Notes: generated by a model from the letters alone, not told the origin. A stretch of 64,000 nucleotides of DNA from Candidatus Saccharimonadota bacterium (GCA_009777625.1 WRLL01000002.1:563-64562); one strand, 5' to 3'; shown: positions 7,582-59,077, numbered from the stretch's first letter. Translations and numbers: made by a program.

Positions 7582-7596
7582 GGAAAAGTTAAGTAT

Positions 7597-7869: not shown

Positions 7870-7997
7870 TTTTCCACAGGATATCCTCTTTAGAATAATG
7901 AAATAACAGATAATATTTACCATTTATTTATCAATTTCCTTTCAGTATACGAACTTTTACACAGCCAGAATCATAACGACCTTAAGCTTGTGGAAAA
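7870..7997. promoter_or_regulatory. DnaA boxes in the rpmH-dnaA spacer (dnaA autoregulation or left part of a bipartite origin)
   Basis: TTTTCCACA at 7870-7878, TTTTACACA at ~7954-7962 and TGTGGAAAA at 7989-7997, in AT-rich DNA. Confidence 0.55.
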
Positions 7998-9432: not shown

Positions 9433-9450
9433 TTTCGAACTAATAATTTC

Positions 9451-10794: not shown

Positions 10795-10812
10795 AAATGC
10801 TAAGATGGGTTT

Positions 10813-15412: not shown

Positions 15413-15427
15413 ACAAGGGTGGGAAGC

Positions 15428-24817: not shown

Positions 24818-24849
24818 GTGTTGCTCCTTTCAGTCTATTGCTAATACTA

Positions 24850-25638: not shown

Positions 25639-26117
25639 AATTCTACCTCTGGTGGCGGCAAATTAGTACACTCAAATGCATCATAGATCAGCTGGCTAAC
25701 GTCGGGGCAAGTTATTAAAATAGTGCCATCACCCAGGACAGACCGGCTATCATTTAGCCAGTTGTCGAGCATCTGGTATGTCTGCTCGAGGCTGGGAATG
25801 TCAATAATGAAAAACGTAACATAGGTGCTCAGGTCATCGTTGTAGCTCTGTAAATAGGAACCATCACGAATGGCAGCGTCTTTTGCGTAGCGTCCTTCGG
25901 CCAACCCATTTTGCTGTAGCATCAGAGTTAAGGTCTGTTCGATAACCACGCGTCGGCTGTTTGGCAAGTTCCCGACATACTGATCGAAGTTGGTTATGAC
26001 TGACCTGGGGGTACCGTCAGAATTAGACAGCAGCGGCGTGAATGCCAGACCAATTATTACTATCACCAATGTGGTTACGACTATGATTACGCGTTTGCGC
26101 CAAGCCTTATATTCCAT
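25635..26117 (-). CDS. bitopic exported protein (N-terminal TM + ~125-aa ectodomain)
   Basis: RVIIVVTTLVIVIIGLAFTPLL anchor. GGAG SD upstream. Size and topology are VirB8-like. No motif evidence. Confidence 0.5.
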   Translation of the reverse strand: MEYKAWRKRVIIVVTTLVIVIIGLAFTPLLSNSDGTPRSVITNFDQYVGNLPNSRRVVIEQTLTLMLQQNGLAEGRYAKDAAIRDGSYLQSYNDDLSTYVTFFIIDIPSLEQTYQMLDNWLNDSRSVLGDGTILITCPDVSQLIYDAFECTNLPPPEVEL

Positions 26118-29491: not shown

Positions 29492-29518
29492 GGTTTACCT
29501 CCACGGTATCTTTAATCA

Positions 29519-32209
29519 TCACCCCCCACCTCCCCCAGGAGCCGGTGGCGCCGGCGGTGCAGGTGGTGGCGCTCCTCCACCCCAACCCCTCAGCGCAGCT
29601 CGTTGACCTTCGTCAAGAGAGAGATTGCGGTTGTCTAGAATGCGTTGTGCGGTGTCTGCCTTCCACTGTGCACCTGTGACGCCGTCTCCCATGTCTGCAT
29701 CGTCCCTTATTGACGTCCCCGCCTGTACTAGCGCTGCGGCATTCTGGGTAGCTATCTCGCTATCGCCCAGGGTGGCCCATACGCCACCGCGGCCTGCTGC
29801 ATCTGTAGCGCCAATGTCTTGTTCTGCGAGTGTCGCGTTGGGGTCTCTAGCCCATGCAGCCACTGAAGCATAGCCACCTTTCACTGCACCATAGTGTTTG
29901 GTCTGGATATCCGACCTTAGATCTGTCGCCACAGCATTCCATCCTCCGGTTCCTTCGACATCTCTCAATGTGTCATGCAATGCCATCACGCCACGTTTAC
30001 CACGGGCCACCATCTGGTTCTGGACTGCCCGGGCTCTGTCGACATTGCCGGTCGCTACAGCCTCTCTCATCTGACGTTCCAAACTCACTATTGGGTCAAT
30101 ATTTGTTCCTCGCTCATGCCCCTTCCCGCTCATGTCCATTTCCAGTTGGCTGGCAACGAGGGCTTCCTGAGCCTTAACAGCTTCAGTCGATCGCTCAAGT
30201 GCCAGTTCATAGCCCTTAGCTTCGCGAGCCTGTCCCGTCTTACCTAGCCTTGCATTTGCTGCCCGGGTGGCTCGTGCCCGCCAACTGTTAGACTGCTCAC
30301 CGCTTTTGTTCAGGCCAGCCCGACGGAAAGCCTGGGTCCTCTGGGCGTTGGCCTGATGTCTTTTCCACATTTGCCCGCCCAATGAACGTTCATGTTCTTC
30401 TTTGGCTTTCGACTTGGTTCGTCCAAATTGGCTGCTCATGCGTCCAGCTGCGAAACCACCGACCATAGCGCCGACCTTGCCAAGGCTATTGAGTGAACCC
30501 TTCAGGATCCATGGTACGGCGAATAGAGGTAGAATTTGGGCGGCTGAGCCAGCCAGCATCAAGGCAAAACCGGTCACATCTATGGTGCCACTACCCTTTG
30601 ACATTAGATCGTTGCCCTGCGCTATAAGGATCTGGCCACCCAGTATTGATGCGCCGTAGATTAGGCCAATGATCGGATAGACCAGCAGGAGCGACGAGAA
30701 GACCTTCCACCACTTCTTGAACAGTGATTGGGTATTAGGCAGTATGGCCATGGCGAAGGCTATTGGTGCGATGACTACCAGCAACACAACAGCCAGCTGG
30801 CGAACAATCAGGATGAGGAGTGTCATTAGCAGTACGAGCAAGACGGCCAGTATGAGCGGGATGAATATACTCAGGCTGGAGAACAGTGCTATACCACCAG
30901 CGATCAGAGCGCCGGATATAATTAGGCCGGTGATGCTGGCAAAGCCACCGCCCGTGGTTGTATTAGGGCCGTCAGGCACCTCGATTGCCGGTACATTGTA
31001 GGCTAAATCGGTGAAGAAGGCTTTCATGCTTGAGCCAAGCAAGTTGCTAATGTCTACTGCTACGGCACAGATCCACCATGACAGGTTTAACAGGATGGCA
31101 AAGATAATTAGTCTAGGCAGGATTTGCTTGACGCTGTAATTACTAAGAGCGCCAAAGCCATTGCCGGTGGCTGTAGAATAGATAATAACAAGGAACAGTA
31201 TGACCAGGAGAATGTTAGCGATCGGTAGAATAGCTGCATAGGCCCCATAGGCTGGGCTGCTGGTGTCAAACATTGTGGGCTGAACCTGCAGGAAGCCTTC
31301 GAGCAGGCTGAACGTGTGGTCGGCTACTTCACCGAGGAAGTCTAGGATTGGGCAGAGGAGCCAGCCTATGCCGGTTATGGCGCAGTCAGAGAGAGAGTTA
31401 ACATCTGCTGGTCTACAGAAAGGAAAGCCATCAGAATCGGCTTCCCACGTGCCGTCGTCAGCCTCGCACGCCGCCCGGCGTTCGGATTCAGGTATACAGC
31501 GGTTCTCAGTATTTATCCACTCACCGCCAGCATTAACACAATTTACCTGATTGGATGTTTCTAAAGTCGTGGTGTCAACTTGCTGTAGGGCCGCACCGAT
31601 GCTGGCGATGCTTGGCGGGTTATCCGTTACGATGTTTTTACCATTTATGCAGCTTTCCATTAACGCTGGACCTGATTTGCCTCTGGTTTCGTCTGCACAT
31701 GTTACGTATGCATTAATGACTCTTGATCGACAGTTTGCGTAGTCCTGTTGCATGCTGGGGCTGCCGCTGCCACCACCATATCTGGAACAATATAAACTGA
31801 TAAGAGGTTGTAGCGCAACGGCTAATTCCGGATCGTATTGTCGTTCGGCCGCCTGTAGTCCCAGAGCGCAGCTTGCCGGGGCATTATCCACAATGCTGCC
31901 AACGAAGCACGAATCGAACGTACTTCCATTGCTGGCGCTTTGATAACCCTTAATGCAATTATCTAGCCATACGTCTTCCTTGTTCTGGAAGGTAAAGCTT
32001 TTTTTTACTTGCTCGCCCGAGAGGAAATCCTTTACTTCCCATTCTACATTACGCGGGAAATTGCTTGAATTGTTCCGAAAGTTGTTACACCAATCGCTAG
32101 CCGCATCAGCATAAGCCGACTGGACGTTAGAAATCATTGGCGCAAATATAGAGACCACCAATCCCAAAATCGCTGGAAATATGAGGGCCCTCTTCCACCA
32201 CTTTTTCAT
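29519..32209 (-). CDS. VirB6/TrbL-like polytopic T4SS membrane protein with Cys-rich N-terminal ectodomain and long charged C-terminal tail
   Basis: Signal/anchor MKKWWKRALIFPAILGLVVSIFAP, then a ~290-aa ectodomain with ~20 Cys, then ~7-8 TM helices, then a ~300-aa Arg/Ala/Gly-rich tail ending PPPAPPAPPAPGGGGG. The start was set at ATG 32209. Confidence 0.65.
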   Translation of the reverse strand: MKKWWKRALIFPAILGLVVSIFAPMISNVQSAYADAASDWCNNFRNNSSNFPRNVEWEVKDFLSGEQVKKSFTFQNKEDVWLDNCIKGYQSASNGSTFDSCFVGSIVDNAPASCALGLQAAERQYDPELAVALQPLISLYCSRYGGGSGSPSMQQDYANCRSRVINAYVTCADETRGKSGPALMESCINGKNIVTDNPPSIASIGAALQQVDTTTLETSNQVNCVNAGGEWINTENRCIPESERRAACEADDGTWEADSDGFPFCRPADVNSLSDCAITGIGWLLCPILDFLGEVADHTFSLLEGFLQVQPTMFDTSSPAYGAYAAILPIANILLVILFLVIIYSTATGNGFGALSNYSVKQILPRLIIFAILLNLSWWICAVAVDISNLLGSSMKAFFTDLAYNVPAIEVPDGPNTTTGGGFASITGLIISGALIAGGIALFSSLSIFIPLILAVLLVLLMTLLILIVRQLAVVLLVVIAPIAFAMAILPNTQSLFKKWWKVFSSLLLVYPIIGLIYGASILGGQILIAQGNDLMSKGSGTIDVTGFALMLAGSAAQILPLFAVPWILKGSLNSLGKVGAMVGGFAAGRMSSQFGRTKSKAKEEHERSLGGQMWKRHQANAQRTQAFRRAGLNKSGEQSNSWRARATRAANARLGKTGQAREAKGYELALERSTEAVKAQEALVASQLEMDMSGKGHERGTNIDPIVSLERQMREAVATGNVDRARAVQNQMVARGKRGVMALHDTLRDVEGTGGWNAVATDLRSDIQTKHYGAVKGGYASVAAWARDPNATLAEQDIGATDAAGRGGVWATLGDSEIATQNAAALVQAGTSIRDDADMGDGVTGAQWKADTAQRILDNRNLSLDEGQRAALRGWGGGAPPPAPPAPPAPGGGGG

Positions 32210-32216
32210 ATATATA

Positions 32217-32245
32217 ATCATAAACGAAATTGCGTTTGAATGCAA
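32217..32245 (-). promoter_or_regulatory. leaderless promoter of the VirB6-like operon (TTGCAT-N17-TATGAT-N7-ATG)
   Basis: On the minus strand, -35 TTGCAT is at 32245-32240 and -10 TATGAT at 32222-32217, with the ATG at 32209. Near-identical to the module at 55737-55765. Confidence 0.6.
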
Positions 32246-32275
32246 CTACTGTCACGGTACAAGAATGATGCGATA

Positions 32276-32284
32276 TGCTACAAT
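32276..32284 (+). promoter_or_regulatory. extended -10 promoter, leaderless (HIT gene)
   Basis: TGcTACAAT at 32276-32284, followed by 6 nt and ATG 32291. No SD. Confidence 0.55.
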
Positions 32285-32290
32285 GTCTAT

Positions 32291-32683
32291 ATGAACGACA
32301 GTATTTTCACCAAAATCATTCGTGGCGAGATTCCGTCACAAAAAATCTACGAGGACGACAAGACCTTTGCTTTTCTGGATATTCGACCAAAACAACCTGG
32401 CCATACGCTGGTCATACCGAAGGCCCAGATCGGCAAAGTTTATGACCTGGACGACACCAACTACCGTGCGCTGTGGGCGTCGGTGCAAAAGGTTGCCCTT
32501 CATATGGAAAAGGTTTTAGGCCGGCGCGTTGCTACTATGATAATCGGCGTTGACATACCAGATCACGCTCACGTTAATCTGATACCATTCGATGGCAGTA
32601 AGGATCTAGATCTGCTGAAAGAACCCGAGGAAGCCAGCGAAGAAGAACTGACAGCGATGGCTGATAGGCTGCGAATATCGTAA
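32291..32683 (+). CDS. HIT-family (histidine triad) nucleotide hydrolase
   Basis: MNDSIFTKIIRGEIPS N-terminus and the HAHVNLIP histidine triad. Confidence 0.9.
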   Translation: MNDSIFTKIIRGEIPSQKIYEDDKTFAFLDIRPKQPGHTLVIPKAQIGKVYDLDDTNYRALWASVQKVALHMEKVLGRRVATMIIGVDIPDHAHVNLIPFDGSKDLDLLKEPEEASEEELTAMADRLRIS

Positions 32684-33114: not shown

Positions 33115-34335
33115 GTGAATCGCAAGAAACCGGTTACTAATAAGAAGTCAGCCAAGGCGGTGGCTTCTAAAACTGCCAAAAAACCACGCAAGAAATTAAT
33201 CATAATGCTGTCCAGTATCGGCGGATTTATCATGGTCGTAGCAGCAGCTTTCTTGATTTGGTGGTTTGCTTATTATAATAATGACAAGGCGATTTTGTCG
33301 GGCGCGTTTCATAACCTTTTGACTAGCCAAGAAGGCTCGGCTGATATGAAAATGACTTTCAAGCCCAACGACACTTCTGCTAGCGTCGAGGGATTTTCAT
33401 TCGAAGGCCTATCAATGGAAATGAATATGGTTGGGATTGGCCAGGACGCACAAGCTGATCTGTCTTTGACGCTAGATGTTAATGGGGTCGGTCTGAAACT
33501 AAAGGGCCAGATGTATTTCGAAATGGCTACCTCGACCTATTATTACAGGGTCGATGGCGTGTCGACATTGATTAAGGAAATCGGTAAGAATCCGGCACTG
33601 CTTGGCTCCAGTGATTATTTGAAAGCCATGACACCAGAAGAAATCGCCGACGATGCCCGAATTCAACAAATAGTTGAAGAGGTCGGATCCAAAATTGACG
33701 GCAAGTGGCTCAAATTGAGCGCGATCGATCTGATTGATCAATTCGCACCGCAGCAGATGTCGGGCGAAACCTTCACGTCATATATGAAGTGCATGACAGA
33801 CACGACTAACAAACTGGTGGACAACAAAGCAATGCGCGACAATCTGCTGTACGAAATCACTGACTCGGGCATGCTGACCGCTACGCGCGTTGGCAAAGAC
33901 GCCGATGGTTTGAAGTACGAGCTGACAGCCAACACTGCCAAATCAGGGACTTTTGTCACCAAACTAATGTCAACTGATCTAATGAAAGAAGCCCAATCAT
34001 GCATCACTGATTTCATGGAGACAATCGGTGAGGAAGCCGAGGACCTGGAAACCGAAAGCGAAGCAATCACCGATGGATTAATGGGATCGGATATGTCGCT
34101 CGAAGACGCCGACGTCAAAATTTACTTCTGGGTAGATCGTGGCAGCCGGCAAGCTCAGCGCCTAGAGGCGTTAATTAACATTCCTGGTAATGCGGGCGGT
34201 AATTTCAATTTTGTTATGACCTATGATTATGCCAAGCCTAATAAGTCGATTGCTGCGCCAACTGATAATATAGTTAATTTTATTGACTTGATGAACGATC
34301 TGCAACAGAGTGGATTGATACCAGAGATAAAGTAG
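33115..34335 (+). CDS. membrane-anchored surface protein, paralog A
   Basis: Basic N-terminus, a TM helix, and then shared blocks with the next gene (WWFAYYNNDKAILSGAFHNLLT, KYELTA, VKIYFWVDRGSRQAQRLE). GGAGGG SD before GTG 33115. Confidence 0.7.
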   Translation: MNRKKPVTNKKSAKAVASKTAKKPRKKLIIMLSSIGGFIMVVAAAFLIWWFAYYNNDKAILSGAFHNLLTSQEGSADMKMTFKPNDTSASVEGFSFEGLSMEMNMVGIGQDAQADLSLTLDVNGVGLKLKGQMYFEMATSTYYYRVDGVSTLIKEIGKNPALLGSSDYLKAMTPEEIADDARIQQIVEEVGSKIDGKWLKLSAIDLIDQFAPQQMSGETFTSYMKCMTDTTNKLVDNKAMRDNLLYEITDSGMLTATRVGKDADGLKYELTANTAKSGTFVTKLMSTDLMKEAQSCITDFMETIGEEAEDLETESEAITDGLMGSDMSLEDADVKIYFWVDRGSRQAQRLEALINIPGNAGGNFNFVMTYDYAKPNKSIAAPTDNIVNFIDLMNDLQQSGLIPEIK

Positions 34336-34430: not shown

Positions 34431-35741
34431 ATGGACGAGAATCCTAAGCAAGCGCCTGTTGATTCAGGGCAAAATCAGCCAGTGACGCCTACGGCGCCGA
34501 GCGCGCCAGAGACGCCGGCAGTACCGGCTTTGTCGGCCGAGCCAGAAACTCAAATGTTCAAATCGGCCAAAAAATCGCGCAAAAAGATGGCGATAATTCT
34601 GTCGATTGTCGGTGTTATCATAGCAGCCGCAGCGGCGGGCGCAGTTTGGTGGTTTGCCTTCTACAACAACGACAAAATGATTTTGAAGGGTGCGTTCGAT
34701 AACCTTCTTACACAACAAAGCGGTACGATCAACATGAACCTGAATGTTGACCCGGGCGAAGCAGCCGGAATGGGCGAGATTTCTGTCAAAGCCAAAGTTG
34801 CTTCGGACGATCAGGGCAACACCAACGCTGATTTTTCGTTCAGCATGGGCGGCGATGCAATGAAGCTTAGCGGTGCGACGTACTTTGCGTCGAATGGTGA
34901 TATTTATGTCAAGGTTGGCGGTCTAGAGCCGCTGGTTAACGTGGCATTGGCGGCGATGGGTGCCGAAGAGGCTGTGGGCGTAGGAGCTGTTCAGCAGCAA
35001 GCTGCGATTGATGCCATCTTTACCCCAATAATTGAAAAAGTTGATGACAAGTGGATCAAAATTAGTGCAGACGATGTCAAATCAGTGGCCGGAGATGTGG
35101 ACACGGCAGCAATTCAAAAGTGTGTGACAGGTGTAACCACTAAGCTAAACGACAACGCTGATTTGCGCAAAAACCTGCTGGAGGCCATGCAGAGCGAAGA
35201 TGTTCTGACCGCCAAGCGCGTTGGCACGGATGCTGACGGCGTGAAATACGAATTGACTATCGACGGCACCAACGCTAACCAGTTTGGCAAGAATTTGGCG
35301 AATACAGACATAGTCAAGCAGACTATGGACTGCCTCAAGAACGCTATGCCGGAAGGAACGCTCGACAACTTTGAGGCCGGGGCCGAAACCGAAGGTAGCA
35401 ATGCTGGAACAGAGGCAAACGATGCCTTGGCTGAGGCCAACGTCAAAATCTACTTCTGGGTAGATCGTGGCAGCCGTGAGGCCCGTAGAATGGAAGTCAC
35501 TGCTCAACCAGTCGACGTAGACGGCGTAAAAAGTGGCAGTGTCAAGTTCTCGATGACCAGCGACAGCAGCAAACCTGACATGCCTGCTGCGCCAACTAAC
35601 GCAACAAGCTTTCAAGATCTGATGAACGATCTGCAGAGCGTTATCATGATGCTGATGATGCAACAGATGAGCGGATTGCAGACAGATGACCTAAGCGCGC
35701 TAGATGGTCTAGAGGAGTTTGAAGGCGCCTTTGGATTCTAG
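34431..35741 (+). CDS. membrane-anchored surface protein, paralog B
   Basis: Same architecture as paralog A (WWFAFYNNDKMILKGAFDNLLT, KYELTI, VKIYFWVDRGSREARRME). AAGGAGGG SD upstream. Confidence 0.7.
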   Translation: MDENPKQAPVDSGQNQPVTPTAPSAPETPAVPALSAEPETQMFKSAKKSRKKMAIILSIVGVIIAAAAAGAVWWFAFYNNDKMILKGAFDNLLTQQSGTINMNLNVDPGEAAGMGEISVKAKVASDDQGNTNADFSFSMGGDAMKLSGATYFASNGDIYVKVGGLEPLVNVALAAMGAEEAVGVGAVQQQAAIDAIFTPIIEKVDDKWIKISADDVKSVAGDVDTAAIQKCVTGVTTKLNDNADLRKNLLEAMQSEDVLTAKRVGTDADGVKYELTIDGTNANQFGKNLANTDIVKQTMDCLKNAMPEGTLDNFEAGAETEGSNAGTEANDALAEANVKIYFWVDRGSREARRMEVTAQPVDVDGVKSGSVKFSMTSDSSKPDMPAAPTNATSFQDLMNDLQSVIMMLMMQQMSGLQTDDLSALDGLEEFEGAFGF

Positions 35742-51484: not shown

Positions 51485-52180
51485 TTACTTCTTCGGCTGA
51501 ACTGCCACAACGGCACCAATAATATTTCTCGCACCAGAATCTTTCAGAAGTCTAGCCGCAGCTGTCATTGTTGCACCAGTTGTCCAGATATCGTCCAGTA
51601 GCAGAATAGCATTTGGAATTTTAGCGCGTGGATTTATGGCGAAAACTTGTTCGGCCGCCGCAATTCGCGCTTTGCTGCCCAACTTGTGTTGTACGGTATT
51701 TGTCTGCCGCAACAATAATCGAGGCATGCATTTTAAGCCGCGCTGCTTGCTCAATTCTTTAGCCACCAATTTCATATGGTCGAAACCACGCTGACGAACA
51801 TGCGATGAAATTGTTGGAATCGGCACAATTACAGTATCAATCGGCAGAGTAGGCAAGCGTTTGTCCAATAACCGCGCGACTATTTTTGCTGCTGCTCGCT
51901 CACTGTTGTATTTATAGTCGCCAACCAGACGACGCAAGTTTTTTTGCCGCCAACCGACTGCCCAAACTTGCTTGAAGCTGCTGCTCCGGCAACAGCCAGA
52001 ACACATATTTGCCCCTTTTGTCATTTGGCCACATTTTACGCACCAGATGAAGCCATTGTCCAAAATGTCAATTATACAACGATCACACAGTAGCGCACCA
52101 CTGGCATTGCAACCCTTGCAAATATGGGGTGAAACTACACCCAAAAACTTATCAGTCCACCCATTCATTGTAATTTCCAC
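51485..52180 (-). CDS. comF: ComF-family phosphoribosyltransferase-domain protein (competence protein ComFC-like)
   Basis: N-terminal Cys4 zinc finger (CKGC...CDRC, CVKC...CSGC) and PRTase motif LLLDDIWTTGATM. The start is GTG 52180 or ATG 52168. Confidence 0.8.
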   Translation of the reverse strand: MEITMNGWTDKFLGVVSPHICKGCNASGALLCDRCIIDILDNGFIWCVKCGQMTKGANMCSGCCRSSSFKQVWAVGWRQKNLRRLVGDYKYNSERAAAKIVARLLDKRLPTLPIDTVIVPIPTISSHVRQRGFDHMKLVAKELSKQRGLKCMPRLLLRQTNTVQHKLGSKARIAAAEQVFAINPRAKIPNAILLLDDIWTTGATMTAAARLLKDSGARNIIGAVVAVQPKK

Positions 52181-52269: not shown

Positions 52270-52755
52270 ATGGCGAGGCAAAATGACGACGATTTGTTGC
52301 TGGATGACGAGCTGGCAGCAGCCTTTTTAACTGAAGAAGAACCGATTGAGGCAGCTGAGACAGTAGTACAGCAGACAACAACGACAACAACCACGACTAC
52401 TTCGAGTAACGAAGATGACTATGACTCGGTGCCGGGGCAACTGGCGGTCGATGTCTATGAAACACCAGATAGACTGGTCGTTAAGGCTCGCACGCCTGGT
52501 GTCAACAAGAATGATCTAGACGTGTCGATTTCTGATGGCGTACTGACGATCAGCGGAACATTGAGCAGTGGTGACGACACCGAAGCGACACAGTGGCACG
52601 TCCAAGAATGCTACTGGGGCGAGTTCAGCCGAACCTTGGTATTACCAGTTGCGGTCAAAGAAGACGAGGTTGATGCTGTTCTAAAGGACGGCGTATTGAC
52701 AGTTTCGTTCAATAAGGTCAAACAAGAGCAAGCCCGCAAGATTCAGATCCAATAG
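52270..52755 (+). CDS. Hsp20/alpha-crystallin small heat-shock protein
   Basis: Alpha-crystallin domain (AVDVYETPDRLVVKARTPGVNKNDLDVSISDGVLTISG) preceded by a poly-Thr linker. GGAGGG SD upstream. Confidence 0.9.
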   Translation: MARQNDDDLLLDDELAAAFLTEEEPIEAAETVVQQTTTTTTTTTSSNEDDYDSVPGQLAVDVYETPDRLVVKARTPGVNKNDLDVSISDGVLTISGTLSSGDDTEATQWHVQECYWGEFSRTLVLPVAVKEDEVDAVLKDGVLTVSFNKVKQEQARKIQIQ

Positions 52756-52776
52756 AGAAGAAGTAATCAAAGAGAA

Positions 52777-52806
52777 TACCCCGCTAGTGATAGCGAGGTA
52801 TTTTTC
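52777..52806 (+). terminator. rho-independent terminator of the Hsp20 gene
   Basis: TACCCCGCTA-gtga-TAGCGAGGTA followed by TTTTT. Confidence 0.7.
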
Positions 52807-52819
52807 TATTAAGAGTTTC

Positions 52820-53230
52820 CTAAACCGAAGTACCGCCGCCGGCGCCTGTACCAACAACACTGACAACCCAGCTCACGATCGCATAGCCCAGGATTGCGAC
52901 AACCAAACCGATTATAGCGTACAGGATGGTATTCTTTGCATCCTTGACCTTTTCTTGGTTACCGCCAGAGATAACATAGCGAATACCACCCCAAATCAGC
53001 ATGAAAATCGCCAGAATTCCAACGACGAACAGCATCAGATTAATGGCGCGCGGGATCAATGCTTGTGGCCCATCAAACAGCTCGGTCGGTTGGCCTTCGC
53101 CACGATAAGAACCGCTAAAAACATCCAATATCGACAAAGCAGAAGCCGGCAAGGTCGACATCAGCGTCACACCAACAAACAGCGTGGCAACTGAGATGAC
53201 CTTGCTTAACTTCTTAAATAATTGTCGCAT
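52820..53230 (-). CDS. VirB2/TrbC-like T4SS pilin paralog 7
   Basis: Signal peptide, then TM1, the WGGIRYVISGGNQEKVKDAKNTILYAIIGL loop and TM2. No Cys in the ectodomain. Confidence 0.75.
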   Translation of the reverse strand: MRQLFKKLSKVISVATLFVGVTLMSTLPASALSILDVFSGSYRGEGQPTELFDGPQALIPRAINLMLFVVGILAIFMLIWGGIRYVISGGNQEKVKDAKNTILYAIIGLVVAILGYAIVSWVVSVVGTGAGGGTSV

Positions 53231-53244
53231 AGAGCTACCTTTGA

Positions 53245-53661
53245 CTAACCGCCGAGTACTCCAAATACCCAGTTAACCAGTGCGTAGGCGATGATTGCTA
53301 TGATTAGGCCAACCACGGAGTACAGAATAGTATTCTTGGCGTTCTTGACCTCGTCTTCTTTACCGCGTGACAAGACATAGCGGATACCACCCCAGATGAT
53401 CATGATGACAGACAGGATACCAACGATAAACAGCATAATGTTGATAACGGTGGTCACAATGCCATTATTACCAAACAGCGAGCCGGTTTGCATGCCTTCG
53501 CCGACTGCACAGTCTTCGTTAATTGCGCCCGCCAAACCTTGCGTCTCGTCGCATGGATCACCCGGCGCCGCATGGACCGCTGGTGCGAACAATCCGAACC
53601 CCAGCACCAAAGCTGGCACTAAAAGCAATGTTGTGCTGATTTTCTTTATCATGCTTTTCAT
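53245..53661 (-). CDS. VirB2/TrbC-like T4SS pilin paralog 6
   Basis: Signal peptide ending VHAAP, a 2-Cys variable segment and the WGGIRYVLSRGKEDEVKNAKNTILYSVVGL core. Confidence 0.78.
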   Translation of the reverse strand: MKSMIKKISTTLLLVPALVLGFGLFAPAVHAAPGDPCDETQGLAGAINEDCAVGEGMQTGSLFGNNGIVTTVINIMLFIVGILSVIMIIWGGIRYVLSRGKEDEVKNAKNTILYSVVGLIIAIIAYALVNWVFGVLGG

Positions 53662-53736
53662 TTAGCCTCCCTCTATCAAATTACTAATTCTTTAACATTT
53701 TACTAAACTTGGAGTTTCATTGCAAATCGATTATGT

Positions 53737-54171
53737 TTAAGATCCCAGCAGACTAAACACCCATTGGACGATTGCGAAGGCCAGAATTGCCACGATCAGA
53801 CCAACGATCGCATAAATAATAGTGTTTTTTGCATTCTTAACTTTTTCAGGATCGCCGCGTGACAGGACGTAACTGATGCCGCCCCAGATGATCATGATGA
53901 CAGACAGGATACCGATGATGAAGAGCATAATATTGATGACCTGCTGGATAGTGCTGTTAAGGTCGCGGGCGCCGCTGGCTCGCACGCATTTTCCGCCGAC
54001 CCATTCTGATCCGGTCTCGGATTGGCAGGCGCTACAGGCTGCAATATTTGCAGCACCAGACAGTTTGTTACAATCAGCTGGGGCTGCGTACGCCGGTGCG
54101 GGCGCAAGGAATGTTGCGCCAACGCCCAATACTGCGACCATGGCAACAATTATATTTGTTAGTTTCCTCAT
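53737..54171 (-). CDS. VirB2/TrbC-like T4SS pilin paralog 5
   Basis: Signal peptide ending AYAAP, a 4-Cys variable segment and the WGGISYVLSRGDPEKVKNAKNTIIYAIVGL core. Confidence 0.78.
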   Translation of the reverse strand: MRKLTNIIVAMVAVLGVGATFLAPAPAYAAPADCNKLSGAANIAACSACQSETGSEWVGGKCVRASGARDLNSTIQQVINIMLFIIGILSVIMIIWGGISYVLSRGDPEKVKNAKNTIIYAIVGLIVAILAFAIVQWVFSLLGS

Positions 54172-54187
54172 AGGTGACTCCTTTCTT

Positions 54188-54586
54188 TTATAACCTACTT
54201 AAAACGAAATTGACAATTGCAAAGGCTGACACAGCGATAACCAGACCGACGATCGAATAGATCAGCATGTTACGGGCTTTTGTGACGGCATCTGGGCTGC
54301 CGCGGCCGGTTACGAAGCGAATACCGCTGATGGTGATCATGATGACGGCGATGATACCAGCTACAAAGATTAGGACATTGATGATATTTCTAAAAGTATT
54401 ATTTAAGGCTGTGTCGGCATTGGGGTCTTTCAGATCGGCGCAAACGGAGGAGTTCGGATTGGCCTTGCATAATTCCTGTATATTCTTTTCCGTAGAGGTA
54501 TCGGGTGCGGCAGATGCTGGCATTGCAAAGACCAAACTACCGGACAGGCCTGCGATCATGACTAAACTTAAGAAGATCTTCTTCAT
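54188..54586 (-). CDS. VirB2/TrbC-like T4SS pilin paralog 4
   Basis: Signal peptide ending ASAAP, a 2-Cys segment and the SGIRFVTGRGSPDAVTKARNMLIYSIVGL core. Confidence 0.75.
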   Translation of the reverse strand: MKKIFLSLVMIAGLSGSLVFAMPASAAPDTSTEKNIQELCKANPNSSVCADLKDPNADTALNNTFRNIINVLIFVAGIIAVIMITISGIRFVTGRGSPDAVTKARNMLIYSIVGLVIAVSAFAIVNFVLSRL

Positions 54587-54589
54587 CGG

Positions 54590-54862
54590 CTAAACCCTTC
54601 CAAACACAAAGTTAGTAATCGCAAAGGCTGCTACAACTACAACTAGCCCAATTACAGCGTAGAGAATGGTCTGCATGGCTTTCTGAGCCTTAGCCGGATC
54701 ACCGTTAGCTGTCAGATAACGGTAGCCAGCCATGATTATGAAAATTACCGCCACCATACCTAGAATAAAGTATGCGAGATTCAAAATGTTAGTCATCAGC
54801 CGGTCGCCGGAAACTTTCGGAACGTTGACATCTATTGCTGCGAGTAATCCAAGTACTTTCAT
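54590..54862 (-). CDS. VirB2/TrbC-like T4SS pilin paralog 3 (short, minimal N-terminus)
   Basis: 90 aa with the AGYRYLTANGDPAKAQKAMQTILYAVIGL core. The start overlaps the upstream stop (ATGA). Confidence 0.7.
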   Translation of the reverse strand: MKVLGLLAAIDVNVPKVSGDRLMTNILNLAYFILGMVAVIFIIMAGYRYLTANGDPAKAQKAMQTILYAVIGLVVVVAAFAITNFVFGRV

Positions 54863-55326
54863 GCGCCCAACCTCCCGACAATAAAGCTAACAATAATGGC
54901 CGATATCATAGCAATGACCGCGCCGATGACGGCCTTCAAAATTGTGTCTTGGGCCTTTTTGGTTTCTTCGGGTTCGCCTTGGGATGTAACGTATCTAAAG
55001 CCGCCATAGATAACATAGCCTACTGCCAAAATGCCGACGATACGCAAGGCGATGTCAACAATGTTCAGAACGACAGTAAAGATAATGACGTTTACCTGGA
55101 GCTCGCAATTGCCATCTTTGCCTCCTTTGCCTGGGACATTGCCCAGGCCTCGGTACCAAGTTGGGAAACCAAAAAAGTTGGCGTCAGAGTCAGCGGCGCC
55201 GGGGATCACTTCGCCTGTGCAGGGAGCATTTCTAGCTACAGCGCTGACCGCCGTTGGCATAGCAATCATCAGACCAGTTGCGCTAAATGCAACTATGGAT
55301 AAACTTATTATAAATTTCTTTATCAT
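54859..55326 (-). CDS. VirB2/TrbC-like T4SS pilin paralog 2
   Basis: AGGAGG SD before ATG 55326. Signal peptide MIKKFIISLSIVAFSATGLMIAMPTAVSA, a 2-Cys segment and the GGFRYVTSQGEPEETKKAQDTILKAVIG core. The ORF-track extension to 55521 overlaps paralog 1. Confidence 0.75.
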   Translation of the reverse strand: MIKKFIISLSIVAFSATGLMIAMPTAVSAVARNAPCTGEVIPGAADSDANFFGFPTWYRGLGNVPGKGGKDGNCELQVNVIIFTVVLNIVDIALRIVGILAVGYVIYGGFRYVTSQGEPEETKKAQDTILKAVIGAVIAMISAIIVSFIVGRLGA

Positions 55327-55730
55327 GAAAGGATGCCTCCTGGCACCAGGAAATTCAATGCTGCCCACATAATGAAGTATAGGACCAACCCGATAACAGA
55401 ATTCCTGATAGTGTCCAGACCTTTTTTCGATTGTTCGGGGTTTCCGCCACTGGTGGTGTAGAGGATCGCTCCATAAATTATGCCACCCAGCACAGCGATT
55501 GATACACCAATAGCCATCCAATTGACGATAGTGATAAGTAACGGTGTAATCTGTTCTGGGTTGCCTGAATCACAGCCCCAGTCAAAGAAAGTGTCCACAC
55601 CGCAGTTACGGTTTCCGGTCGCAGCCGAGACGCCTTTTGCGGTCAACAACGCTGCGGCAGTCACAGACAACGGCCCGCCAAATCCAAACACCCTTGATGG
55701 CAAAGAAAGCTTCAAGTGTCGTTTTAGCAT
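55323..55730 (-). CDS. VirB2/TrbC-like T4SS pilin paralog 1 (most divergent)
   Basis: Signal-like N-terminus, a 2-Cys segment (NCGVDTFFDWGC) and the two-TM core ILYTTSGGNPEQSKKGLDTIRNSVIGL. Confidence 0.65.
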   Translation of the reverse strand: MLKRHLKLSLPSRVFGFGGPLSVTAAALLTAKGVSAATGNRNCGVDTFFDWGCDSGNPEQITPLLITIVNWMAIGVSIAVLGGIIYGAILYTTSGGNPEQSKKGLDTIRNSVIGLVLYFIMWAALNFLVPGGILS

Positions 55731-55736
55731 GACTTT

Positions 55737-55765
55737 ATCATAAACGAAATGACGGGCAAATGCAA
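55737..55765 (-). promoter_or_regulatory. leaderless promoter of the pilin array (TTGCAT-N17-TATGAT-N6-ATG)
   Basis: On the minus strand, -35 TTGCAT is at 55765-55760 and -10 TATGAT at 55742-55737, with the ATG at 55730. Shares ATTTCGTTTATGAT and AGTTGCAT with 32217-32247. Confidence 0.6.
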
Positions 55766-55777
55766 CTGTTTATTGTG

Positions 55778-57406
55778 TTAATCAGACAAGCTCAAGTTGC
55801 GTTGCCGCCAAGTCACAATCCCAATAATTGCCAAGGCCAACGCAATCGACGCGATAATAAATAGCGGCAGCATCTTCACGGCTTCCGCTGGTACTGGGGC
55901 AGTGTAGTGCAGCGGCGAAAAGTTGTTCAGCCATTGAGGCAAATTCACCAAGCCGCCGATCCACGACACGAACGCCACAAAGCCGAAATAAACCCAAGTT
56001 ACCAAACCAGCGGCGCGTGGCAACAACCCGAACAGGCAAACATAGCCAGCGGAAAATACCGCAACAACAGGGAAGTAGCTTAACGCCGCTAAAATGTATT
56101 CAGAAATCTTGACACTCTCGCCACCGAGATTTGTCGCCAGCCCCAACGTAAACCCAGCCGCAATCAACATCACCAAAACCCCCGCCAACACCACGAAGAA
56201 ATGCCTCAGTAACCAGCCAATCCGCGGCAATTTCGTCGCCAACAAATTCTCCAAATATCCGGCCGATTCCTCGCCGCGCAATTTGCCCGAAGCCTGAACC
56301 GCGTAGGCCATCGTCATCAAAATTATGATCATAAGCATCGCCGACAGGAACACCGGAATCTGCGCGCCGGTGCCGCCCATGGCGCTGATGACCTGCGCGA
56401 GCTGCGGCGAGCTATCGTAGACGTGGCTCATCTGGGACACCAACGCGCCACAGATCGCCGCCATGGCCAGCACGCCGACCAGCCAACCGAGAAAAATGTT
56501 CTTTTGTAAGTACCAGGTCAAGCCTAATGCCGTTCGACGAAATACCGAAGCTCGCGCACGACCTCTTCTGGACGGCAACAATCCAGCGCCAACGTCGCGA
56601 TGATTCAACATGACAAAGGCGATAGGGATCAAGACAACGGCGCAAAGAATCGGAATTAACAGCGGCCACCATTCAGGATAAGTCAGCGAGCGCGTCGCCT
56701 GAATCCAGCCAAATGGCGACAGGTAAGAAATCCAATGCGGCTGTACTAAACCGCTGGCATCGGCCTGTCCCAAGAAATCGCCAATACCCCTTAACAAAAA
56801 AGTTACGCCGATCAAGCCCGCCAAAATCCCGTTGGCCGACCGCGCGCTCTCGACCAACTGCGCCACGACCAACGCGATCGCCGCCCAAGTGAACCCGAGC
56901 AGCGCCATGCCGGAGCTGTACAACAGTACCTGCGAGTTCGACCATAACGCGCCGCCGTCGGATAGCGCAATCATGCCAACCGCGATTATGGCTCCCAAAA
57001 CCAAGTTCGCGAAAAACGCCACAATCATGACCGCGACAGAGCTGGCACCGCGATGCACTCTGGCGCTCATGATCAATTCCTGCGCGCCGATTTCCTCGTT
57101 CTGCCGCGTGTGCCGCACGACCAACAGCGTGTTCATGAAAACGACCGCCAGCCCCCACCACAGAACCGTCTCGATCGTGAACAGCGCGCCAAACGTCGGC
57201 GCGTCCATCATACCTGTTAATAACAATCCCGCCGGGTTTAATTTGAACGTTTCATATAAGGTTTGCAGCGATTCCGGCGTGCCGTAAGTATTCTTCAGCA
57301 GAGGAATCATCCAGAGCAGGAACAGCGAAATACCGAGAATCCAGATTGGCAGTTTGACGCGGTCGCGCCGCAGGATTAATTTTATAAGTTGCCAGGTGCC
57401 AGTCAT
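55778..57406 (-). CDS. ABC-2-type exporter permease (about 12 TM helices)
   Basis: 542-aa highly hydrophobic ORF. Last gene of an ABC ATPase / Zn-ribbon / SDR / permease operon with overlapping stops and starts. Confidence 0.7.
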   Translation of the reverse strand: MTGTWQLIKLILRRDRVKLPIWILGISLFLLWMIPLLKNTYGTPESLQTLYETFKLNPAGLLLTGMMDAPTFGALFTIETVLWWGLAVVFMNTLLVVRHTRQNEEIGAQELIMSARVHRGASSVAVMIVAFFANLVLGAIIAVGMIALSDGGALWSNSQVLLYSSGMALLGFTWAAIALVVAQLVESARSANGILAGLIGVTFLLRGIGDFLGQADASGLVQPHWISYLSPFGWIQATRSLTYPEWWPLLIPILCAVVLIPIAFVMLNHRDVGAGLLPSRRGRARASVFRRTALGLTWYLQKNIFLGWLVGVLAMAAICGALVSQMSHVYDSSPQLAQVISAMGGTGAQIPVFLSAMLMIIILMTMAYAVQASGKLRGEESAGYLENLLATKLPRIGWLLRHFFVVLAGVLVMLIAAGFTLGLATNLGGESVKISEYILAALSYFPVVAVFSAGYVCLFGLLPRAAGLVTWVYFGFVAFVSWIGGLVNLPQWLNNFSPLHYTAPVPAEAVKMLPLFIIASIALALAIIGIVTWRQRNLSLSD

Positions 57407-58068
57407 TGCTCCTCCTTTATCTCATATTTCCGATTGACAACAATCTCAGAAATTTCAACTGTTCGCGGAGTTTTCAGAACTTCATAAAGCATTTTCGCGA
57501 CATCAGCAACCGGTGCCCAATTTTCTGGGTCAGCAATTTGCTTATCAATTTTCTCTGCCATTCGCGACAAGAAACCGCCCGGCACAAAACTAATCGCCCG
57601 TGCTCGTGAACCTTTCAATCGCTCTGATAAGCCAAGCGTAAAACCACGAAGCCCCCATTTGCTACTACTGTAAATTGGCTGCCGAATGTCGCCGCGTGTC
57701 GCGGAAGTAGAAATTATATTCACGAATTCACCGCCTTCTACGCGAATTTTATCAAACAGAAGATTTTCCAATAAAATTGGACCCATCGTATTTGTCAAAA
57801 ATACTCGCGAGATTTCCGCAAAATTATTTTCGGTTTCGCGAGCCATAACTCCCGCACAATTCACCAGCGAAATCTCACCGTCGGTTTTCGCGATTTCATT
57901 TGCGGCTTCGCGAATTGAATCTTCATTAGTTAAATCCAGTTTTAGAAAATCAACTTCGTAATCTGGTTTCGTTCGCGATAACCCAACAACTTTTTCGCCA
58001 TCTTCTAGTAAAAGTTTCGCGAGCTCACAGCCGAGTCTGTCGCTTGCGCCAGTGATAAAGTAAATCAT
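57403..58068 (-). CDS. short-chain dehydrogenase/reductase (SDR)
   Basis: TGxxxxxG (ITGASDRLG) and YxxxK (YSSSK) motifs. Confidence 0.85.
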   Translation of the reverse strand: MIYFITGASDRLGCELAKLLLEDGEKVVGLSRTKPDYEVDFLKLDLTNEDSIREAANEIAKTDGEISLVNCAGVMARETENNFAEISRVFLTNTMGPILLENLLFDKIRVEGGEFVNIISTSATRGDIRQPIYSSSKWGLRGFTLGLSERLKGSRARAISFVPGGFLSRMAEKIDKQIADPENWAPVADVAKMLYEVLKTPRTVEISEIVVNRKYEIKEEQ

Positions 58069-58349
58069 TTTTCCGACCCTTGCTTATTCCACCGCTTCAT
58101 TTTCTTCAGCTGCATCGGATACATTTTCTTAATCATAAATTTCATCGGCTTGCTCATCTCGGCATTTTCATCAATACCTTGCAGCCCGATTTTCAGCATT
58201 TCTTCCATCGTGATATCCGGGTTGGTGAACTGGCCGTTCGCGAAACAAAAATGACAATATTCTTGGTTTTTCGAACCGTCCGCGTTAGTGCCGAAATCCT
58301 CCGGCTTTTCCAGCGGCATGGCGCAACTTTGACAAAAAACCTTGCTCAT
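58065..58349 (-). CDS. zinc-ribbon domain protein
   Basis: [13 protein letters not shown]...YCHFCF four-Cys ribbon. ATG 58349 overlaps the upstream stop (ATGA). The ORF-track extension to 58472 was rejected. Confidence 0.6.
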
Positions 58350-59077
58350 TTTTCCTCCTCCTCGTATTTGCTCAGGAACAGCTGATCCAAATTCTCGTGC
58401 TCGCGTTTCAGCTCGGCCAGGGTGTAAACGGCGACGGTTTTGCCTTCCTTGATGATGGTGACGCGGTCGCACAGCGTTTCGGCCTCTGACAGAATGTGCG
58501 AGGACAGCAGGACGGTTTTGCCGTGTTTTTTCAGCGCGAAGATTTCGTCCTGGAAAACTTTGCCCATCAGCGGGTCGAGACCTGACGTTGGTTCGTCCAA
58601 AATGTAGAGCGGGACATCTGATGCCAAGGCTGCGACCAGGGCGACTTTCTGGCGATTCCCTTTGGAATAAGTTCGGAATTTCTTGCGCGGGTCGAGTTGG
58701 AATTTAGCTAGTAATTCTTTGCGCCTGTGTTCGCTTAAACCGCCACGTAAATTGCCAAGCAAATCAATAATTTCACCGCCGGTCAGATTCGGCCAAAAAT
58801 TCACATCGCCTGGAACATAGGCCAACTTTTCGTGAAGTTTGACAGCGTCTTTCCACGGATCCTGGCCGAATAACGTAACGTCGCCAGAATTTTTCTTAAG
58901 CAGTCCTAGGAGAACCCGAATCGTGGTCGATTTTCCAGCCCCGTTCGGCCCGAGGAAACCATGAATTTCACCTTTCTGAACGCCCATGTTGAAGCCGTCC
59001 AACGCCTTGACCGCGCCGAAATGTTTGACAAGTTTGTTTATTTCGATCACCAGATTAATGTTGTCATTCTGTGGCAT
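58346..59077 (-). CDS. ABC transporter ATP-binding protein
   Basis: Walker [10 protein letters not shown], an ABC signature region and Walker [13 protein letters not shown]. Confidence 0.9.

Follow-up and report, generated by a model that had tools for sequence, protein, structure and literature searches.

What are seven divergent copies of one small membrane-protein design doing side by side on a Saccharibacteria (TM7) chromosome? Are they pilins of a T4SS and, if so, does the cell choose among them or does each have a place of its own? The genes lie in an oriC-proximal stretch of 64 000 nt; we call this whole stretch the window.

Gene layout and T4SS context

Seven consecutive T4SS pilin paralogs, P1 to P7, occupy the minus strand from 55730 to 52820 (Table 1). 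The ORF list and a reading of the sequence agree in this with the first-pass annotation, which had described seven consecutive minus-strand genes of 90–155 aa sharing one design. P2 was taken to start with the ATG of MIKK; called mechanically, its ORF begins further upstream, at a TTG. Translational coupling of paralogs 1–4, claimed in the same annotation, is borne out by two ATGA overlaps of −4 nt (P1/P2 and P2/P3) and a 3-nt gap (P3/P4). Paralogs 5–7 do have spacers of their own: 16 nt for P4/P5, 14 nt for P6/P7 and, for P5/P6, 75 nt with the 138-aa P6 start or 84 nt with an alternative ATG.

The P2 Shine–Dalgarno sequence, AGGAGG, sits within the 3′ end of P1; no Shine–Dalgarno precedes the P1 ATG in the 47-nt upstream region. 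An element seen by eye in that region, below the criteria of the scan, is possibly the array promoter, with a very short leader. The array transcript is likely ended by a hairpin past P7 that overlaps a plus-strand hairpin downstream of hsp20; the consensus scan detecting such hairpins returned a number of sites in the region not above shuffle expectation.

Table 1. Features of the window discussed in the text (coordinates count from the first nucleotide of the window)
Feature	Coordinates	Strand	Remarks
PrgI/VirB3-like membrane protein	14381-15412	+	heads virB4 module; weak PrgI match, E 0.03
TrsD-like protein	15419-16249	+	NCBIfam TrsD E 2.3e-4, under cut-off
VirB4-like T4SS ATPase	16250-18073	+	607 aa; NF045971 (CD1110 family) 370.3 bits, cut-off 325
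Membrane protein, 1108 aa	26165-29491	-	C-terminal VanY-type peptidoglycan peptidase domain, PF02557 37 bits
VirB6-like polytopic membrane protein	29519-32245	-	908 aa; putative identity, from homologues adjoining pilin arrays
comF	51485-52180	-	640 nt beyond P7
hsp20	52270-52755	opposite to array and comF	between P7 and comF
Terminator-like hairpin	52775-52802	-	12-bp stem directly 3′ of P7; consensus scan
P7	52820-53230	-	136 aa; last gene of array; 0 Cys
P6	53245-53661	-	138 aa; 2 Cys; Shine–Dalgarno GAGGGAGG in preceding spacer
Promoter-like element	53726-53697	-	P5/P6 spacer; 9/12 by scan; not above shuffle expectation
P5	53737-54171	-	144 aa; 4 Cys; own Shine–Dalgarno AAAGGAG
P4	54188-54586	-	132 aa; 2 Cys
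P3	54590-54862	-	90 aa, short form; no signal-peptide-like leader; 0 Cys
P2	54859-55326	-	155 aa; 2 Cys; longest ectodomain of array
P1	55323-55730	-	135 aa; opens the array; leader weak; 2 Cys in ectodomain; divergent loop LYTTSGGNPEQSKK
Possible array promoter	55731-55777	-	47 nt upstream of P1; TTGCAT-17 nt-TATGAT, by eye

Elsewhere in the window we saw a T4SS of the Gram-positive type, as had been proposed: besides its CD1110-family score the VirB4-like ATPase matched Pfam TraG P-loop and AAA_10, and the gene order PrgI-like, TrsD-like, VirB4 is kept in relatives. The TrsD-like protein is homologous (E 7e-28) to the product of the gene upstream of VirB4 in a module on a Pontibacillus megaplasmid (see below). 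The VirB6-like protein, without a match in Pfam and NCBIfam, is weakly similar (E 3e-5) to that of a TrbL-like gene in the same module. A homologue of the 1108-aa membrane protein adjoins the VirB4 homologue in related loci, and a gene of the peptidoglycan DD-metalloendopeptidase family holds the matching place in Pontibacillus; the protein is likely the cell-wall hydrolase of the T4SS, a functional VirB1 analogue. No VirB5, VirB7, VirB9 or VirB10 was recognised in the window. The absence of VirD4, also stated before, holds for the window, where the VirB4-like gene is the one ATPase of VirD4 size; it tells nothing of the remaining genome. In Patescibacteria, genes for T4CP homologues usually stand far from virB4.

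Family membership and predicted protein design

All seven proteins scored above the gathering threshold of PF18895, T4SS_pilin (26.6 bits, whole-protein HMM score), with 36.7, 42.9, 57.1, 43.1, 55.6, 44.0 and 45.9 bits for P1 to P7. The TrbC/VirB2 family PF04956 (gathering threshold 27.9 bits) accepted P4 (29.9) and P5 (28.8); P3 (21.6) and P6 (21.7) fell below it, and P1, P2 and P7 had no match at E ≤ 1. Two paralogs, P3 (46.0 bits) and P5 (43.4 bits), also passed the 40-bit cut-off of NCBIfam NF045849, the Mbov_0395/MMCAP2_0565 family of pilin-like conjugal transfer proteins known from Mycoplasma ICEs and Bacillota elements; the others matched under the cut-off (P1 30.2, P2 21.7, P4 29.0, P6 28.3, P7 29.5). 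An HMM built from the seven retrieved from the window precisely those seven ORFs (E 6e-32 to 4e-57, the next at 0.19), and their likeness is therefore far beyond chance. An NCBI record identical to P5 carries the name ‘pilin’. The assignment to VirB2/TrbC-type pilins was thus supported by the HMM searches, through PF18895 in all seven and through PF04956 in two. In the terms of Quinonero-Coronel et al. 2025 (Microb Genom), for whom two or more PF18895/PF04956 genes make a VirB2 array if they stand in tandem or with one gene between them in a VirB4-encoding Patescibacteria genome, the locus is such an array, with seven genes in tandem and VirB4 in the window.

Type IV pilins (T4P, PilA-type) were considered and rejected: the prepilin-peptidase site G/(F,M)xxxE occurs in none of the seven, no T4P Pfam family was matched, and each paralog has two C-terminal TM helices instead of the single N-terminal hydrophobic helix of T4P.

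Each paralog is laid out as a leader (missing from P3), a variable ectodomain, TM1, a basic loop and TM2. The hydropathy scan found two strong C-terminal hydrophobic segments in 7/7 paralogs and a hydrophobic N-terminal leader in P2, P4, P5, P6 and P7; that of P1 was weaker, below threshold, and P3 had none. AxA-type motifs end the leader-like n/h regions in P2 and P4–P7, with a weaker one in P1, as predicted leaders. Set against the earlier statement that every paralog except the third carries a signal peptide, the predicted leaders are clear in five paralogs and weaker in P1. Cysteines ahead of TM1 number 2, 2, 0, 2, 4, 2 and 0 from P1 to P7; the 2 or 4 Cys described as usual are found in 5/7 ectodomains, P3 and P7 having none. 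The TM1-loop-TM2 core is common to all seven, with only 3 invariant columns in the alignment of P1–P7. Its loop is less uniform than the consensus first given for it, from which P1 (LYTTSGGNPEQSKKGLDT) deviates, and less uniformly basic: net charge runs from −1 (P2) to +3 in the window, with 0 in P1. In relatives each position of the array has a median of +1 to +3.

An AF2 model of P5 (mean pLDDT 79.8) is a two-helix hairpin of residues 71–103 and 108–143, the helices having block-mean pLDDT of 75–91. Foldseek gave no match to the PDB at E ≤ 0.001; the best pilin was the A. pernix conjugation pilin 8dfu (E 5.8, TMt 0.58). No PDB sequence was matched in a profile search, and with hhalign the A. 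tumefaciens VirB2 aligned over 26 columns only, at E 0.067. A fold as simple as the two-helix hairpin cannot discriminate here.

With good confidence we assign the seven gene products to the VirB2 family (Pfam T4SS_pilin), as subunits of a chromosomal Gram-positive-type (MPF-FATA-like) Saccharibacteria T4SS that would work as follows. Each pilin would insert in the membrane as a two-helix hairpin, six of them probably by way of a cleavable Sec leader and P3 without one, with the short basic loop in the cytoplasm and both the C-terminus and the variable, often disulfide-bonded N-terminal domain outward. From there the VirB4 ATPase, together with VirB6 as platform, would pull the subunits out and polymerise them into a pilus or conduit of tubular form that runs through the cell wall in the direction of the host bacterium; if solved conjugative pili are a guide, the loop may line the lumen and the variable ectodomain may decorate the outside. 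Filament formation, a major/minor division of labour and the cargo are what we infer here. To our knowledge, no filament of a Patescibacteria T4SS has been seen so far.

That no pilus has been observed fits a reading in which the proteins are VirB2-like and yet form no extended pilus, either lining a short stalk or channel through the epibiont’s own wall or staying in the membrane as translocon parts. Gram-positive T4SSs have long been called pilus-less; Saccharibacteria live in direct contact with the surface of the host and have type IV pili for motility, so that a long T4SS pilus may be needless. We think this reading unlikely, as ectodomains that vary and are Cys-bonded point to an exposed position outside the cell, and PrgF, a Gram-positive VirB2-like protein, behaved as an extruded polymer or pilus subunit in labelling experiments. 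It differs from the preferred reading chiefly in filament length, which sequence cannot settle.

Conservation of the array and proposed roles of its positions

The pilin array is kept in 81 Saccharibacteria loci, mostly with 6 or 7 pilin genes; these loci came from a search with patterns derived from the pilins, and a small number of oral and gut lineages dominates them (only 9 lineages after dereplication). Every genome locus recovered (80/80) was from Saccharibacteria or other Patescibacteria. VirB4 and VirB6 were expected by the first-pass annotation to occur together with the pilins; VirB4 and a VirB6-like gene are both in the window. Of 73 related loci, 65 had a VirB6-like gene at most 10 kb from the array, and 29 had VirB4 there.

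The closest relative found has the identical seven-gene arrangement, its genes matching one-to-one. Across lineages, after dereplication, the best match was position-true for 99% of p1, 78% of p2 and 49% of p3 proteins; by these matches positions 1–3 are old, position-specific orthogroups. Positions 4–7 underwent lineage-specific reshuffling and duplication. In 54 related six-gene arrays the junctions 1–2, 2–3 and 3–4 were ≤5 nt in 94–98% of cases, the p5–p6 junction had a median of 75 nt, and the position 3 product was ∼94 aa, the short leaderless form being kept. P7 had as its best match the ‘lone’ pilin in 35/35 loci having one; in Nanosynbacter-type genomes this counterpart of P7 lies ∼3 kb off on the opposite strand.

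One could read the paralogs as interchangeable alternative major pilins, serving antigenic variation or host-strain matching as proposed for the tandem VirB2 of Bartonella and Anaplasma; Quinonero-Coronel et al. 2025 offered this reading. Some observations speak for it: the N-terminal part diverges faster (25–67% orthologue identity, 75–90% for the core), and the reshuffling at positions 4–7 agrees with it. Positions 1 and 2 are nonetheless distinct orthogroups over divergent lineages, the leaderless P3 form and the one-to-one correspondence in the closest relative are poorly suited to exchangeable parts, and coupling of P1–P4 means that these genes are expressed together and not chosen among. 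Reading the array sequence, we noticed no switching element. Furthermore, the pilin series of the Southlakia epibionticum T4SS is reported to be essential (Wang et al. 2023, Cell), which argues against redundancy. We consider interchangeable pilins quite improbable. The first-pass annotation had named major and minor subunits side by side with antigenic or host-range variants; positional orthology and kept coupling together favour differentiated (major/minor) subunits over the variants.

In the preferred reading, of differentiated subunits, the paralogs are probably not interchangeable. P1–P3, being old, position-fixed and translated in coupling with P4, would be candidate minor, initiating or tip subunits, and P5–P7, downstream, separately translated and more fluid, candidate bulk subunits; the assignment is made from gene order, coupling and orthology.

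A third reading starts from comF, which does lie at the distance first reported from the last array gene. It joins the array and ComF in a machine for DNA or nucleotide uptake, a ComB-like import T4SS. Gene order is indeed conserved (array, hsp20, comF, with comF in 76/81 loci and hsp20 in 77/81), most Patescibacteria T4SS clusters are without relaxases (Quinonero-Coronel et al. 2025), and uptake via T4SS has been put forward in perspective and review articles, a 2025 review discussing a possible pilus and uptake role. However, hsp20 on the opposite strand intervenes and the terminator-like hairpin follows P7; conserved gene order is common in small genomes and is no evidence of joint function. 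In S. epibionticum, where the T4SS and its pilins are essential (Wang et al. 2023, Cell), none of ComEC, ComF and DprA counts among the fitness genes, and cells survive deletion of comEC. The link of comF to the array is conserved gene order only, and we regard the uptake idea as highly improbable; none of this speaks against an import of molecules other than DNA through the T4SS.

Comparison with known systems

Arrays of this kind are not new, since Wang et al. 2023 and Quinonero-Coronel et al. 2025 reported them, the latter with 441 arrays of 2–11 VirB2-like genes each in Patescibacteria. The pilin array in the T4SS of Candidatus Southlakia epibionticum ML1 (within SEML1_0006-0019) and the catalogued Patescibacteria arrays share with the window the PF18895/PF04956 family, the class Saccharimonadia, tandem divergent paralogs, an MPF-FATA-like VirB4/VirB6/PrgI/TrsD set, an oriC-proximal place and the lack of a relaxase nearby. 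They differ in that six pilin genes were reported for ML1 and seven stand in tandem here, the seventh being the ‘lone’ pilin of other lineages, and in that the array of this genome is detached from virB6 and virB4 by 20–35 kb. The present analysis adds conservation of the array over 81 loci, positional orthology, coupling and a Bacillota module with tandem pilins; in the literature consulted we did not find positional orthology, conserved coupling or the Bacillota tandem-pilin module reported.

That module lies on the megaplasmid NZ_CP062975.1 of Pontibacillus sp. ALD_SL1 (Bacillota). Its two tandem pilins have a leader, a 2-Cys ectodomain, TM, basic loop and TM as in the window, and are followed by VirB6-like, PrgI-like, TrsD-like, CD1110-type VirB4 and peptidoglycan hydrolase genes in an order similar to that of Saccharibacteria. 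With VirB2-like proteins now reported from most Gram-positive conjugative plasmids, and with the published arrays, the pilin set can no longer be called unusual, as it was at first. Mycoplasma ICE and Bacillota elements carry one or two copies in what is presumably a conjugative element of a free-living monoderm; Saccharibacteria have six or seven, chromosomal and essential for growth on the host. Given a similarly ordered Bacillota module with two pilins, pilins of the window’s type probably arrived together with the monoderm T4SS.

One could speculate further, and we do so tentatively, that the array encodes a T4SS pilus built as a fixed-role heteropolymer, with P1–P3 and possibly P4 as minor subunits for initiation, tip or host contact in place of the missing VirB5 and P5–P7 as the bulk, and that its pilins are ancestral in a sublineage of monoderm MPF-FATA systems to which Bacillota elements like the Pontibacillus megaplasmid also belong, not co-opted from diderm systems. 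If true, it would be a T4SS counterpart to the minor-pilin logic of type IV pili.

Gram-negative VirB2/TrbC/TraA pilins (PF04956; T-pilus 8cue/8exh) resemble those of the window in small size, leader, two hydrophobic helices and short charged loop. Yet 5/7 of the window’s paralogs are under the TrbC threshold, solved pilins gave no significant match by sequence or by Foldseek, the cell is a monoderm, and the N-terminal ectodomain with its Cys far exceeds that of mature VirB2 in length. Similar in design is PrgF (PrgF-B2), encoded by Enterococcus faecalis pCF10 (ter Beek et al. 2025 preprint), a two-TM VirB2-like protein with a charged loop from a Gram-positive MPF-FATA system; it is essential for T4SS function, and its pilus has been modelled as resting on a pentamer of VirB6. 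Unlike the window’s pilins it is a single gene product with no large ectodomain and serves DNA conjugation with a relaxase and a coupling protein. Finally, the virulence T4SSs of Bartonella, Anaplasma and Ehrlichia also have several diverged tandem VirB2 copies in a host-dependent bacterium; theirs are MPF-T systems of diderms, with antigenic variation assumed for the copies, whereas in the window’s array the first three positions are stable orthogroups with coupled translation.

Seven tandem pilin genes of one family

The first-pass annotation had described seven consecutive minus-strand genes of one pilin design (P1 to P7, numbered in transcription order); the ORF list, a reading of the sequence and recovery with an HMM built from the seven paralogs all confirm them. 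When all six-frame ORFs of the window were searched, this HMM retrieved exactly P1-P7 (E 6e-32 to 4e-57) and no other pilin gene in the window, the best ORF outside the array being at E 0.19. The P1/P2 and P2/P3 junctions are ATGA overlaps, and 3 nt separate P3 from P4; the remaining spacers are of 16 nt (P4/P5), 75 nt (P5/P6) and 14 nt (P6/P7). Directly after P7 a consensus scan placed a terminator-like hairpin with a 12-bp stem; as the number of sites in the promoter/terminator scan was not above shuffle expectation, promoter-like and terminator-like sites are hints only.

Coordinates of the features discussed (window positions unless a locus is named; P1-P7 from the ORF list and a reverse-strand read)
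Feature	Position	Strand	Remark
P1	55323-55730	-	135 aa
P2	54859-55326	-	155 aa counted from ATG at MIKK
P3	54590-54862	-	90 aa
P4	54188-54586	-	132 aa
P5	53737-54171	-	144 aa
P6	53245-53661	-	138 aa
P7	52820-53230	-	136 aa
hsp20	52270-52755	+	between array and comF
comF	51485-52180	-	beyond hsp20
Origin-proximal genes	6078-11856		yidC, dnaA (7990-9432), dnaN, recF
PrgI-like, TrsD-like, VirB4	14381-18073	+	T4SS genes
VirB6-like; 1108-aa protein	32245-26165	-	polytopic; VanY-type peptidase domain
Three small genes	24338-26117	-	160, 159 and 262 aa
HIT-family gene	32240-32683		divergent from virB6
Tandem paralogs	33115-34335, 34431-35741	+	406 and 436 aa
Genes upstream of array	55778-59077	-	542-aa polytopic permease, SDR, Zn-ribbon protein, ABC ATPase
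Lone pilin, example	L071 13601-14044	-	Nanosynbacter sp. TM7-008, NZ_CP157587.1
Pontibacillus module	L082 8785-18204		NZ_CP062975.1 351801-361354, Pontibacillus sp. ALD_SL1 plasmid

A TM1-loop-TM2 core is common to all seven products; in the alignment of the paralogs, identity to P1 is 21-35%. A hydropathy scan found two strong C-terminal hydrophobic segments in every paralog. A hydrophobic leader at the N-terminus was seen in P2 and in P4-P7; it is weaker in P1 and absent from P3. From P1 to P7, the numbers of cysteines before TM1 are 2, 2, 0, 2, 4, 2 and 0. The basic-loop consensus proposed earlier fits P5-P7 well and P2-P4 less well; P1 departs from it.

The profile searches suggested at first pass, against TrbC/VirB2 and T4SS pilin families, agreed with the family assignment: the gathering threshold of PF18895 (T4SS_pilin; 26.6 bits) was exceeded by all seven paralogs (36.7-57.1 bits), and that of PF04956 (TrbC/VirB2) by P4 and P5, with P3 and P6 slightly under it. 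NF045849 of NCBIfam (Mbov_0395 family pilin-like conjugal transfer protein) matches all seven, only P3 and P5 being above the cut-off, and a protein identical to P5 is already named ‘pilin [Candidatus Saccharibacteria bacterium]’ at NCBI. Type IV (PilA-type) pilins were ruled out, as the proteins lack a prepilin motif and their topology does not fit.

P5 was modelled with AlphaFold2 from a 28-sequence alignment (mean pLDDT 79.8); the model consists of a leader helix, a small ectodomain and, as a long hairpin, two helices (H71-103 and H108-143, with block-mean pLDDT 75-91). Foldseek search of the PDB with this model gave nothing at E <= 0.001, the matches being generic helical hairpins; since a two-helix hairpin is too simple a fold, such a search is a poor discriminator here. 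The profile of the seven-paralog alignment found among PDB sequences only a spurious viral glycoprotein (E 1.1). Comparison of the 28-sequence pilin alignment with Agrobacterium tumefaciens VirB2 (sequence checked against 8cue/8exh) by hhalign was not significant (26 columns aligned, E 0.067), even if the match, from TM1 to loop, is plausibly placed.

Conserved syntax of the array

Relatives were sought in one genome per species with the P5-P7 alignment as query, the seven-paralog alignment having no usable conserved stretch. The closest relative found, locus L001 (P5 orthologue 70% identical), carries the same seven pilin genes, identically ordered; beyond them lie an opposite-strand hsp20 and, after it, comF. 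Compared with it, the window pilins are 25-67% identical in their N-terminal parts and 75-90% in their cores. The scan added 80 loci, almost all of them carrying a Saccharibacteria label; seven pilin ORFs were present in 38 of the 81 loci and six in 27.

The commonest layout has six tandem pilins and one lone pilin on the other strand; in many of the related loci (among L023-L080) the lone gene lies past hsp20 and comF, ∼3 kb beyond the array. It has no Cys and its loop is highly conserved, RYVISGGKKESVTNAKNT. Judged by best matches, the lone pilin of other lineages is the counterpart of P7/P6 of the window, as it was the best match of P7 in 35 of 35 loci and of P6 in 34 of 35.

Within the arrays, best matches stay in position for the first gene in 95-100% of comparisons across loci and for the second in about 90%. 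After dereplication to nine divergent lineages the values were 99% for the first position, 78% for the second and 49% for the third; positions 4-6 were mixed. The third gene is typically a short form (about 94 aa); its product contains no Cys in 36 of the 54 arrays with six genes. In these 54 arrays junctions 1-2, 2-3 and 3-4 are <=5 nt in 98%, 98% and 94% of cases, and the junction between genes 5 and 6 has a median of 75 nt. At each array position the loop carries a median net charge of +1 to +3 among relatives. On the strength of gene order and sequence, we favour a set of differentiated, co-expressed subunits over interchangeable variants: position-fixed orthology, close junctions and the related array results point that way.

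The best-supported mechanism is a pilus or conduit assembled by VirB4/VirB6 from specialised and bulk subunits. VirB2-family subunits would be inserted into the membrane as N-out/C-out hairpins, and the VirB4/VirB6 machinery would assemble them into a wall-crossing structure directed toward the host, with P1-P3 (perhaps also P4) as specialised and P5-P7 as bulk subunits. The analysis itself shows family membership, predicted topology, conservation, orthology and coupling; essentiality is taken from the literature, and we infer the cargo, the division of labour and the formation of a filament. The conserved syntax itself, consisting of three fixed orthogroups, coupled translation of genes 1-4 and a spacer ahead of the final genes, could guide the choice of paralogs to be depleted individually.

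T4SS partners, comF and chromosomal setting

The window covers a Saccharibacteria chromosome around oriC. Its T4SS genes are 6-48 kb from dnaA, a closeness that fits the published trend in Patescibacteria, where T4SS genes are often near oriC. A VirB6-like gene was found <=10 kb from the array in 65 of the 73 loci with at least four pilins, and in most relatives the array is divergent from one virB6/PrgI-like/TrsD-like/virB4/hydrolase cluster. In the window the partners are present but dispersed; VirB4 scores 370 bits against the NCBIfam CD1110 family (cut-off 325). No second large ATPase was found within the window. Since genes for T4CP (VirD4-type coupling protein) homologues normally lie far from virB4 in Patescibacteria (PMC12102498), ‘no VirD4’ in the window is uninformative.

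The T4SS lies here in three pieces (14381-18073, +; 26165-32245, -; 52820-55730, -), and a single inversion of ∼32.25-55.77 kb would restore P1 beside virB6, divergent, as in L001. Leftward of the array, hsp20, comF, PGM, Mur ligase and TsaD genes are in the same order as in L001. Upstream, the permease adjoining the array has no Pfam or NCBIfam match and no homologue in the 81 related loci; the segment from permease to ABC ATPase may be a lineage-specific insertion or the mark of a rearrangement breakpoint. Just past the HIT-family gene are the 406- and 436-aa tandem paralogs, each with an N-terminal membrane anchor and common motifs (WWFAYYNNDK...ILxGAFxNLLT; KIYFWVDRGSRxAxRxE); Pfam gave no match for either. 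The three small genes after the 1108-aa hydrolase gene, on the same strand, gave no family matches; by eye, the 160- and 159-aa products have one N-terminal hydrophobic TM-like segment each, and the N-terminus of the 262-aa product is signal-peptide-like. A role as accessory or effector proteins of the T4SS is possible.

We found comF in 76 of the 81 loci and hsp20 in 77, with the array-hsp20-comF order conserved across very divergent Saccharibacteria lineages; even among streamlined genomes this stands out. The proximity of comF had earlier prompted the speculation that the array has a role in DNA or nucleotide uptake. A functional link is opposed by the opposite-strand hsp20 in between, by the hairpin after P7 and by the dispensability of ComF in S. 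epibionticum, the only species with pilins known to be essential (PMC10633639); the comF-based argument is thus not retained, and we read the adjacency as probably conserved gene order, not a functional unit.

Published systems and a Bacillota counterpart

The pilin array is real, correctly identified and already known, with Pfam and NCBI labels in existence: it repeats work of 2023-2025, and all parts of the earlier interpretation are in print, the speculative role in uptake among them. Wang et al. (2023, Cell) placed the S. epibionticum T4SS closest to Gram-positive conjugative systems, and the T4SS with its pilin series was essential for epibiotic growth in the only species of Saccharibacteria tested (PMC10633639). 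Quinonero-Coronel et al. (2025), searching with PF04956 and PF18895, noted T4SS close to dnaA and proposed host-range versatility as a role (PMC12102498). A 2025 FEMS review (PMC12857230) takes up six divergent S. epibionticum pilins and the possibility that a pilus serves as an uptake conduit; nucleotide acquisition via T4SS was proposed in a 2024 PNAS perspective. The locus belongs to the active question of how ultrasmall parasites draw on their hosts; the residual novelty is the conserved syntax of the array and a counterpart in Bacillota.

A tblastn search of PLSDB plasmids with P3 returned only two records; sequence-level relatives of P3 on sequenced plasmids are rare at the tblastn sensitivity used. 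The search matched a gene of a Pontibacillus (Bacillota) megaplasmid, annotated as Mbov_0395-family pilin-like protein; MOB-suite types this plasmid (NZ_CP062975.1) as ‘non-mobilizable’. The two tandem pilins there match the seven-paralog HMM at E 8e-20 and 1e-16, and the first passes PF18895 (47.4 bits) and matches P5 in BLASTP at E 1e-14; between Pontibacillus and the window, E-values are 1.8e-128 for VirB4 and 7e-28 for the TrsD-like protein.

VirB2 pilins beside a Gram-positive-type T4SS had been taken for an anomaly, a view that this tandem-pilin module undercuts. A T4SS module with duplicated pilins in a genuine Gram-positive makes it more likely that the pilins were inherited together with a monoderm T4SS than that they were co-opted from diderm systems. 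According to a December 2025 preprint, nearly every Gram-positive conjugative plasmid analysed encodes a VirB2-like protein, and PrgF of pCF10 is VirB2-like, essential and probably pilus-forming. The Pontibacillus pilins, like those of the window, have a leader, a 2-Cys ectodomain, a TM segment, a basic loop and a second TM segment; they are followed by TrbL/VirB6-like, PrgI/TraL-like, TrsD-like, CD1110-family VirB4 and peptidoglycan hydrolase genes, an order similar to that of the Saccharibacteria T4SS, and the two-pilin module is a possible tractable Gram-positive model.
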